Shown here one piece after another: positions 61,890 to 62,040 of a stretch of DNA of 64,000 nt. The notes below the pieces were generated by a model that worked only from the letters and a program-made list of their open reading frames with translations, was not told where the DNA came from and ran no database searches. How positions within the stretch are numbered: position 1 is the stretch's first letter; each line of letters opens with the position of its first letter. The DNA is from Escherichia phage vB_EcoM_YN3: sequence record PV763136.1. One strand, 5' to 3'. A program made the position numbers and the translations under genes.

Positions 61890-61918
61890 TTGACACATTG
61901 CCGCTCCAGTGATAGTAT
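61890..61918 (+). promoter_or_regulatory. consensus sigma70-type promoter
   Basis: TTGACA - 17 nt - TAGTAT. Confidence 0.6.
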
Positions 61919-61938
61919 CCACACATCGTTTGGAGAAT

Positions 61939-62040
61939 ATGGGATACACAATGAAAACATTGTCAGAGGTTTTGGTGGTTATTCTGATGATCATTACGTC
62001 CATAGCGGCTGTTGCCGGAATACTCACGGGTGGAACATGA
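61939..62040 (+). CDS. small hydrophobic peptide (holin- or toxin-like)
   Basis: 33 aa MGYTMKTLSEVLVVILMIITSIAAVAGILTGGT, 20 nt after the promoter -10, GGAG 3 nt upstream. Confidence 0.3.
   Translation: MGYTMKTLSEVLVVILMIITSIAAVAGILTGGT

Follow-up and report, generated by a model that had tools for sequence, protein, structure and literature searches.

The window analysed here, a stretch of 64,000 nucleotides (nt) of Escherichia phage vB_EcoM_YN3 (PV763136.1), derives from an rV5-like coliphage of the genus Vequintavirus and contains, at 61890-62040, a sigma-70 promoter corresponding to rV5 P162 followed by a very short hydrophobic open reading frame (ORF). Conservation among relatives suggests that promoter and ORF form a real expression unit, the ORF encoding a micropeptide of 29-33 amino acids (aa) predicted to consist essentially of one transmembrane (TM) helix. 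On balance, the locus is probably a small operon read by the host RNA polymerase and therefore expressed early, whose first product would be an accessory inner-membrane micropeptide tuning a host membrane protein or process. Both the promoter and the peptide are already known from the literature and from public annotation, and the main value of the analysis lies in annotation, as the public Vequintavirus records show a 29-aa peptide gene, a 33-aa one or none.

The P162 Promoter and the Micropeptide ORF

61890..61918, plus strand: sigma-70 promoter with extended -10 (rV5 P162), from promoter scan and conservation
61932..61935, plus strand: Shine-Dalgarno GGAG, 3 nt upstream of the first ATG and 15 nt upstream of the second, from sequence and duplex energies
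61939..62040, plus strand: micropeptide coding sequence (CDS), encoding 33 aa if read from the first ATG and a 29-aa core MKTLSEVLVVILMIITSIAAVAGILTGGT if read from the second, at 61951

The -35 hexamer TTGACA (61890-61895) and the -10 hexamer TAGTAT (61913-61918) are separated by a 17-nt spacer and reach 10/12 matches in the promoter scan, the arrangement being the one described in a first-pass annotation of the window made from the letters alone. In addition, a TG at 61910-61911, one base upstream of the -10 hexamer, makes this an extended -10 promoter (TG-n-TAGTAT), from which a transcription start at about 61923-61926 is inferred. P162 was predicted with the same sequence in Table S4 of the rV5 paper (PMC3606486) and is annotated as a promoter in the Gotham record. 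Exactly 20 nt lie between the -10 hexamer and ATG 61939; the first-pass annotation had this distance right, whereas the position that it implied for the ATG, 61940, is displaced by one base. The ATG opens the 33-codon ORF MGYTMKTLSEVLVVILMIITSIAAVAGILTGGT, whose stop ends at 62040, and the hydrophobic peptide reported there is confirmed by the sequence and supported by its conservation, described below. Its 19-residue stretch VLVVILMIITSIAAVAGIL has a mean Kyte-Doolittle value of 2.95, the top value in the window, with a grand average of hydropathicity (GRAVY) of 1.5-1.75, and a single TM helix is predicted at about residues 7-25 of the core. With at most 50 aa and one bilayer-length hydrophobic segment, the peptide falls among the small single-TM proteins.

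By themselves, the promoter and ORF motifs are not beyond chance, since a 6-kb scan yielded 18 promoter-like sites, compared with 11.5 +/- 3.0 in shuffles, and about 150 ORFs of the window contain a hydrophobic 19-mer. The case for P162 and the peptide stands above chance because both are conserved among relatives.

Conservation and Selection across the Genus

Positions 61680-62360 of the window were aligned with 18 relatives from GenBank and IMG/VR, the latter contributing only three related loci; nine Logan/ENA contigs and phage nomine, added later, brought the relatives compared at the DNA level to 28, and a genus-wide tblastn search covered 117 Vequintavirus records. Many rV5-like E. coli myophages match the locus at 97-99% identity, and a divergent clade (L007, L020 and L024) has about 72% nucleotide identity at the peptide locus. 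Eighteen GenBank records carrying a Campylobacter label (MG0656xx; A142, C7, D# and others) are 88-100% identical to rV5-like phages in this region; record A142 is flagged UNVERIFIED, and the Campylobacter jejuni host labels of the group look doubtful.

The -35 hexamer and the TGnTAGTAT motif are unchanged in 17/18 of the aligned relatives and in 7/9 of the later contigs, the spacer is variable, and both hexamers are retained even in the divergent clade. Three relatives deviate: S127 BCL3 has a replaced -10 region, L026 reads TAATAT, and L024 has ATGG where the others have GTGA ahead of the hexamer. An uninterrupted peptide ORF occurs in 27 of the 28 relatives, and tblastn located the peptide, at 84-100% identity, in 113 of the 117 genus records; no peptide was detected by this search in the other four.

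Among 24 distinct core sequences, variable sites split 6/6/15 over the three codon positions (p = 0.014), and variant codons comprise 18 synonymous, 15 non-synonymous and no stop changes in the peptide frame, compared with 4/18/8 and 8/22/2 in the other two plus-strand frames. The ratio of non-synonymous to synonymous substitution rates (dN/dS) of the core lies at 0.09-0.11 in comparison with the divergent clade and ranges over 0-0.23 among main-clade members, values comparable with those of five neighbouring genes (0.02-0.15). Moreover, replacements are mostly conservative (V/I, A/V, T/V, S/A, K/R, E/D), and an insertion of 3 nt in L022 preserves both the frame and the ATGA overlap with the downstream gene. 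These data support the view that the peptide is the product of a real gene under purifying selection, and that P162 together with the short hydrophobic ORF constitutes a real, conserved expression unit.

The peptide is nonetheless dispensable, that is, accessory: it has been lost in a natural isolate deposited as a complete genome, S127 BCL3, where unrelated sequence takes the place of the -10 region and of most of the peptide gene, and the downstream 70-aa gene is retained. The family also appears to be restricted to the genus Vequintavirus. A word-index search over 5.8 billion clustered proteins gave no homologue outside the genus, an HMMER profile search over 1.84 billion representatives returned only the peptide's own Vequintavirus cluster, and no significant match was obtained in Pfam (E <= 1), NCBIfam or the PDB.

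As to where translation begins, the 33-aa form shows non-synonymous variation in codons 2-4 (G/E/K, Y/C/R, T/A), and the sequence is nearly invariant from the second Met onward. Three phages (rV5, PMBT16 and FV3) no longer have the GGAG at 61932-61935; in the first two of these, another GGAG occurs within codons 1-2, 6 nt before the second ATG, and in FV3 duplex energies reveal no recognisable Shine-Dalgarno for either ATG. The conserved product is probably the 29-aa core starting at 61951, because in the divergent clade the first ATG is missing and the second is preceded, at a distance of 8 nt, by a strong Shine-Dalgarno (AGAGGAG).

The Flanking Elements of the Probable Operon

61701..61730, plus strand: intrinsic terminator (hairpin 61701-61720 and T-tract) that ends the upstream transcript, from a terminator scan
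61809..61889, no strand assigned: nearly invariant non-coding island of about 80 nt directly upstream of the -35 hexamer, from the alignment
62037..62249, plus strand: ORF70, second cistron, encoding an acidic 70-aa protein (isoelectric point 4.1) that matches phrog_16356
62370..62585, plus strand: ORF163 of rV5, third gene, encoding an acidic 71-aa protein, with an AGGAG Shine-Dalgarno and a match to phrog_12108

The ATG of ORF70 overlaps the TGA of the peptide gene (ATGA), an overlap conserved throughout the main clade that suggests coupled translation. The divergent clade lacks this overlap; there, a GAGG Shine-Dalgarno for ORF70 lies 8 nt after the peptide stop. The ORF70 product begins with a conserved M-[IT]-N-T-H and ends with 30 invariant residues (DPEADDLTWEDIVDIWFSIMPEHEEFRGGRL; dN/dS 0.02), separated by an acidic, serine-rich and hypervariable N-terminal linker (62040-62150) in which indels are mostly in frame (+3, -9, -12, -27, -30 and -60 nt among relatives, and a 2-nt insertion in one metagenomic contig). 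The 43 clusters of ORF70 homologues are mostly called at 70 aa. The AlphaFold2 model, of low confidence (mean predicted local distance difference test, pLDDT, of 61), is mostly disordered with a helix at residues 48-58. ORF163 is 88-100% identical across the genus, with a dN/dS of 0.15. A tblastn search with the 70-aa and 71-aa neighbours found no homologue outside the genus, only chance Vibrio matches at E = 0.6.

Upstream of the promoter, the terminator hairpin is kept in 18/18 aligned relatives and is an annotated terminator in Murica and Gotham. The island between terminator and promoter is 93% identical to L007, compared with 58-73% for its flanks, and contains an 8-bp inverted repeat (CGAGCGTA at 61809-61816 and TACGCTCG at 61852-61859). 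It is single-copy in 117/117 records, and a query combining island and promoter matched at 95% or more in 116/117. No Rfam match and no coding signal were found in the island, and its predicted RNA fold is not significant on either strand (z = -1.5 and +0.7 against shuffles); likewise, neither the locus nor the adjacent non-coding region contains an Rfam family or a transfer RNA (tRNA) gene. The idea of a repeated, PeSL-like cassette was discarded, there being no second copy in the window or in any genome. One possibility is that the island is a regulatory DNA site for the promoter.

A 44-aa plus-strand ORF at 61733-61867 is annotated in DrSchubert, PMBT16 and FV3 and, as the longer 52-aa ORF161, in rV5. 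Its substitution pattern is of non-coding type (8 synonymous and 54 non-synonymous changes, and 2 stops), and its conserved 3' half coincides with the invariant island, a pattern indicating that it is probably not a gene.

In phage nomine (L029, MN850649), positions 2583-2617, corresponding approximately to window 61887-61903, consist of a 17-bp tandem duplication (CTGTTGACACATTACCG, twice) that copies the -35 hexamer of P162 and is labelled repeat_region in the record. This label and the start of the slur16 record had hinted at a genome terminus inside the promoter, an idea that was rejected: the nomine feature corresponds to the tandem duplication just described, and the terminal repeat of LL12 lies about 1.6 kb further downstream.

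Proposed Role of the Micropeptide

In the proposed mechanism, P162 would start a transcript at about 61925, beyond the terminator at 61701-61730, and its first cistron would yield the peptide of 29-33 aa, essentially one TM helix. The second cistron, the acidic and mostly disordered ORF70 product, would be translated by coupling, and the acidic 71-aa protein would follow. The peptide would take up an N-in/C-out topology in the inner membrane, with the N-terminus cytoplasmic, as suggested by the N-terminal location of its sole positive charge (K/R) and by the neutral or acidic C-terminus. There it may act as an accessory early effector through helix-helix contacts, which would suit the small residues T16, A19/A20, G23 and G27 that form one face of the helix. 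Its target would be a host membrane protein or process, for instance transport, envelope signalling, superinfection exclusion or defence evasion, and no lysis hole would be formed.

Several other small ORFs (27-87 aa) of the plus-strand transcription unit each contain one strongly hydrophobic segment:

52997-53116, 54837-54932, 57107-57208, 59892-59975, 59985-60248 and 60277-60417, plus strand: small single-TM ORFs, from hydrophobicity

In a PHROG scan covering five of these ORFs (all except 59892-59975), four matched families of unknown function at E <= 1e-25, and 54837-54932 gave a weak match only. This phage group would seem to possess a whole repertoire of very small membrane proteins. In a bolder version of the proposal, the peptide, made from a promoter that is among those nearest to the genome terminus and possibly acting with its acidic partner, would be a new kind of immediate-early inner-membrane effector that blocks superinfection or DNA entry, disables a membrane-bound defence system or a transporter, or tunes lysis timing; this version seems rather improbable.

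Several points weigh against the accessory early membrane protein favoured here. The function proposed is drawn from analogy, no homologue of known function was found for the peptide, and a literature search returned no transcriptome, ribosome profiling (Ribo-seq) or non-virion proteome for rV5-like phages. The small-residue face is not fully conserved, G23 being replaced by E in the divergent clade and by V in HMD-6. The start is ambiguous, with the GGAG mostly at 3 nt from the first ATG and 15 nt from the second, and four extra residues may be present in some phages. Finally, the antisense frame over the peptide (16/16/0), which shares its wobble positions with the peptide frame, is not separable from it by substitution statistics alone.

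Alternative Readings of the Locus

The last of these points bears on the two long, mutually antisense ORFs that cover the region, 61767-62222 (minus strand) and 61836-62249 (plus strand), both present as listed in the first-pass annotation, which considered them devoid of promoter or ribosome-binding-site support. As drawn, neither is a gene, and to that extent the claim was borne out, but it fails for 62037-62249, since the last 70 codons of the plus-strand ORF are the genuine conserved gene ORF70. That the real gene is the long plus-strand ORF (or its 101-aa form, ORF162), or else the minus-strand ORF (or its 94-aa form), with the peptide as a by-product, is exceedingly improbable. N-extended versions of the plus-strand ORF are annotated often (rV5 ORF162, 101 aa; JEP1, 119 aa; HMD-6, 129 aa), including a 119-aa cluster with 84 members, and the minus-strand frame has a ratio of synonymous to non-synonymous changes over the peptide similar to that of the peptide frame, with which its wobble positions are shared. 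Against this, the plus-strand ORF is interrupted upstream of 62037 in 12/18 relatives, its frame is the one with 8/22/2 over the peptide and contains stops in the divergent clade, its start sits downstream of the terminator and upstream of the promoter, and no frame has a coding-type substitution signal over 61836-61938. The minus-strand ORF is interrupted in 15/18 relatives and its 94-aa sub-ORF in 5/18, including the whole divergent clade; it is these breaks elsewhere, the lack of a Shine-Dalgarno and an antisense course through the invariant promoter that exclude it.

The peptide ORF might also be an upstream ORF or leader without protein function that brings ribosomes to the ATG of ORF70. 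The maintenance of the ATGA overlap throughout the main clade would fit such a role, as would the unconstrained codons 2-4 of the 33-aa form and the fact that S127 BCL3 keeps the last ~30 nt of the peptide gene, GTTGCCGGAATACTTACGGGTGGAACATGA, which hold a weak GGTGGA Shine-Dalgarno for ORF70. However, a dN/dS of about 0.1 and conservative hydrophobic replacements point to selection on the amino acids of the peptide, and the divergent clade retains the TM peptide without the overlap. Moreover, in Aya a 74-nt deletion frameshifts ORF70, whose conserved residues have decayed, and the peptide remains intact, so it would not be a mere coupling device. A leader role is, on this evidence, unlikely.

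52647..52883, plus strand: homologue of rV5 gp129, 78 aa, with two strong transmembrane domains (TMDs) and a K/R/E-rich C-terminus; phrog_10061, of unknown function

The first-pass annotation had likened the peptide to holins, antiholins and type I toxins, partly on the premise that no holin was found near the endolysin or the spanins. The premise overlooked the gp129 homologue, and the likeness itself is undermined by the loss of the peptide in S127 BCL3, the lack of a charged C-terminal domain, the absence of a family match and the sigma-70 promoter. As the missing holin of the rV5 group, an antiholin or another lysis-timing factor, the peptide would have in its favour one strongly hydrophobic TM helix, the absence of a positively identified holin in LL12 (PMC6658697) and of a holin homologue in rV5 (PMC3606486), and a sub-threshold match to the TM segment of holin_phiLC3 (13.2 bits, E = 0.08). 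That score is nevertheless well short of the NCBIfam cutoff of 39.7 bits, and Pfam gave no match. Holins usually have two or three TMDs and a charged C-terminus (PMC3606486), whereas the peptide has 29-33 aa, one TMD and no charged hydrophilic tail; its last residues, TGGT or, for the divergent clade, YTL, include no basic one. Its consensus sigma-70 promoter belongs to a group of small genes of early type, and the endolysin (near 30.2 kb) and the spanins (near 19.4-20.1 kb) are about 31 and 42 kb away, these positions being taken from the LL12 annotation, whose coordinates differ by a few hundred bases from those of the window. Its loss in S127 BCL3 with the neighbouring genes intact counts further against a holin, because a sole holin would be essential. 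Finally, gp129, with 78 aa, two TMDs and a basic C-terminus, is the proposed holin of rV5 (PMC3606486), and its homologue is the better candidate in the window. It is thus very unlikely that the peptide is the phage's missing holin.

Very unlikely, too, is a type I toxin-like peptide that depolarises the membrane, either controlled by an antisense RNA or serving in host shut-off. TisB-, Ibs- and ShoB-type toxins resemble the peptide in size and hydrophobicity, and a promoter-like site on the minus strand, 62107-62079 (9/12 matches), would drive antisense transcription across the gene. This site, the only one bearing on the antisense small RNA that the first-pass annotation had proposed to look for, lies in the indel-rich hypervariable 5' part of ORF70 and is deleted in 7/18 relatives. 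In Rfam no antitoxin or small RNA match reached threshold, the sole sok match, at 13.7 bits against a 59-bit threshold, being located elsewhere; no toxin family of Pfam or NCBIfam matched either, and the fold of the peptide mRNA region is not unusual (z = +0.7 against shuffles). In addition, early depolarisation would presumably harm a lytic phage that needs host energy.

Genomic Context

By means of the LL12 annotation, genes for structural proteins, spanins, tRNAs, nucleotide metabolism and the endolysin were placed across the window. The peptide locus stands at the far end of a long plus-strand block that corresponds to rV5 transcription unit 82-163, named in the rV5 paper (PMC3606486). The terminal repeat of LL12, 459 bp at 104,966-105,424 of its record (PMC6658697), maps to about 63555-64013 of the window, some 1.6 kb downstream of the peptide locus. 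The large terminase (TerL) gene, whose homologous segment in the window is at about 17570-19436 on the minus strand, is intron-split in the LL12 annotation, and an intron is also present in the TerL gene of rV5 (PMC3606486).

The region 62738-63430, of about 650-700 nt, contains short ORFs only and is 95-100% identical to L007, compared with about 80% for the flanking genes. It starts just after a near-consensus promoter, TTGACA-16-TAAAAT with a TG (62713-62740), and a terminator-like hairpin (62763-62775) and adjoins the position of the LL12 terminal repeat, inside the box drawn as 'non-coding' on the rV5 map (PMC3606486). It gave no Rfam match and has a single short direct repeat (63346 and 63381). 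This region could hold packaging, replication or injection signals, or a non-coding RNA.

Comparison with Annotated Counterparts and Known Systems

The peptide matches phrog_34195 with E = 4.6e-21 and 75 bits, its residues 5-33 corresponding to positions 1-29 of the 29 of the profile. This family includes Murica FDG88_gp132/CPT_Murica147 (YP_009593991.1, 29 aa), which is the same gene as that of the window, and related annotations are the 33-aa BASEL proteins bas50_0136, bas52_0135 and bas57_0135 and PMBT16 XCD29194.1. The annotated counterparts are 91-97% identical to the window peptide and are hypothetical proteins without assigned function. In Murica, DrSchubert and PMBT16 the CDS occupies the homologous position, after a terminator and a promoter and overlapping a 70-aa gene. 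There is no substantive difference between these counterparts and the window peptide, and the records disagree on the start, at 29 or 33 aa. Other records omit the peptide and extend the downstream gene through it to 101-138 aa; across public records the annotated length of that gene ranges over 47-138 aa, with frequent erroneous extensions that even run past the promoter. As judged from sequence comparison, the gene model can be regarded as settled, with the terminator, P162, a TM peptide of 29-33 aa, an overlapping acidic 70-aa protein and ORF163, in that order.

Holins, including the gp129-type candidate, are likewise small, hydrophobic, membrane-embedded phage proteins. In contrast, the peptide is at most half the size of the gp129-type candidate, has one TMD and no charged C-terminal domain, follows an early-type promoter, is unlinked to the endolysin and spanins and is dispensable in a natural isolate. 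The analysis removes a weak holin candidate from a phage group without a verified holin. Type I toxins, among them TisB, Ibs, ShoB, Ldr and Hok, are similar to the peptide in size and hydrophobicity, but the peptide has no conserved antisense RNA promoter or family match and would belong to an early operon of a virulent phage.

Bacteria themselves contain single-TM small membrane proteins, such as AcrZ, MgtS and MgrB. Such proteins, for example the 27-aa YohP, form an established class (PMC7549839, PMC12648545), in which the YohP-type proteins have fewer than 50 aa, essentially one TM helix and very short tails, like the peptide. There is no sequence relationship between them and the peptide, which is phage-encoded and placed behind an early promoter of a virulent phage. 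A precedent on the phage side is PhiNM1 Gp11, reported to be a small membrane early-gene product that blocks cell division of S. aureus and was found by early-gene screening (PMC11237401), and thus a small phage membrane protein directed at host envelope processes. Phage, host and sequence are in this case unrelated to the rV5-group peptide. In architecture, no known kind appears closer to the peptide than the YohP-type proteins, and a mode of action based on binding larger membrane proteins may likewise be shared with them. The peptide adds one well-supported member to the poorly studied phage-encoded single-TM micropeptides.

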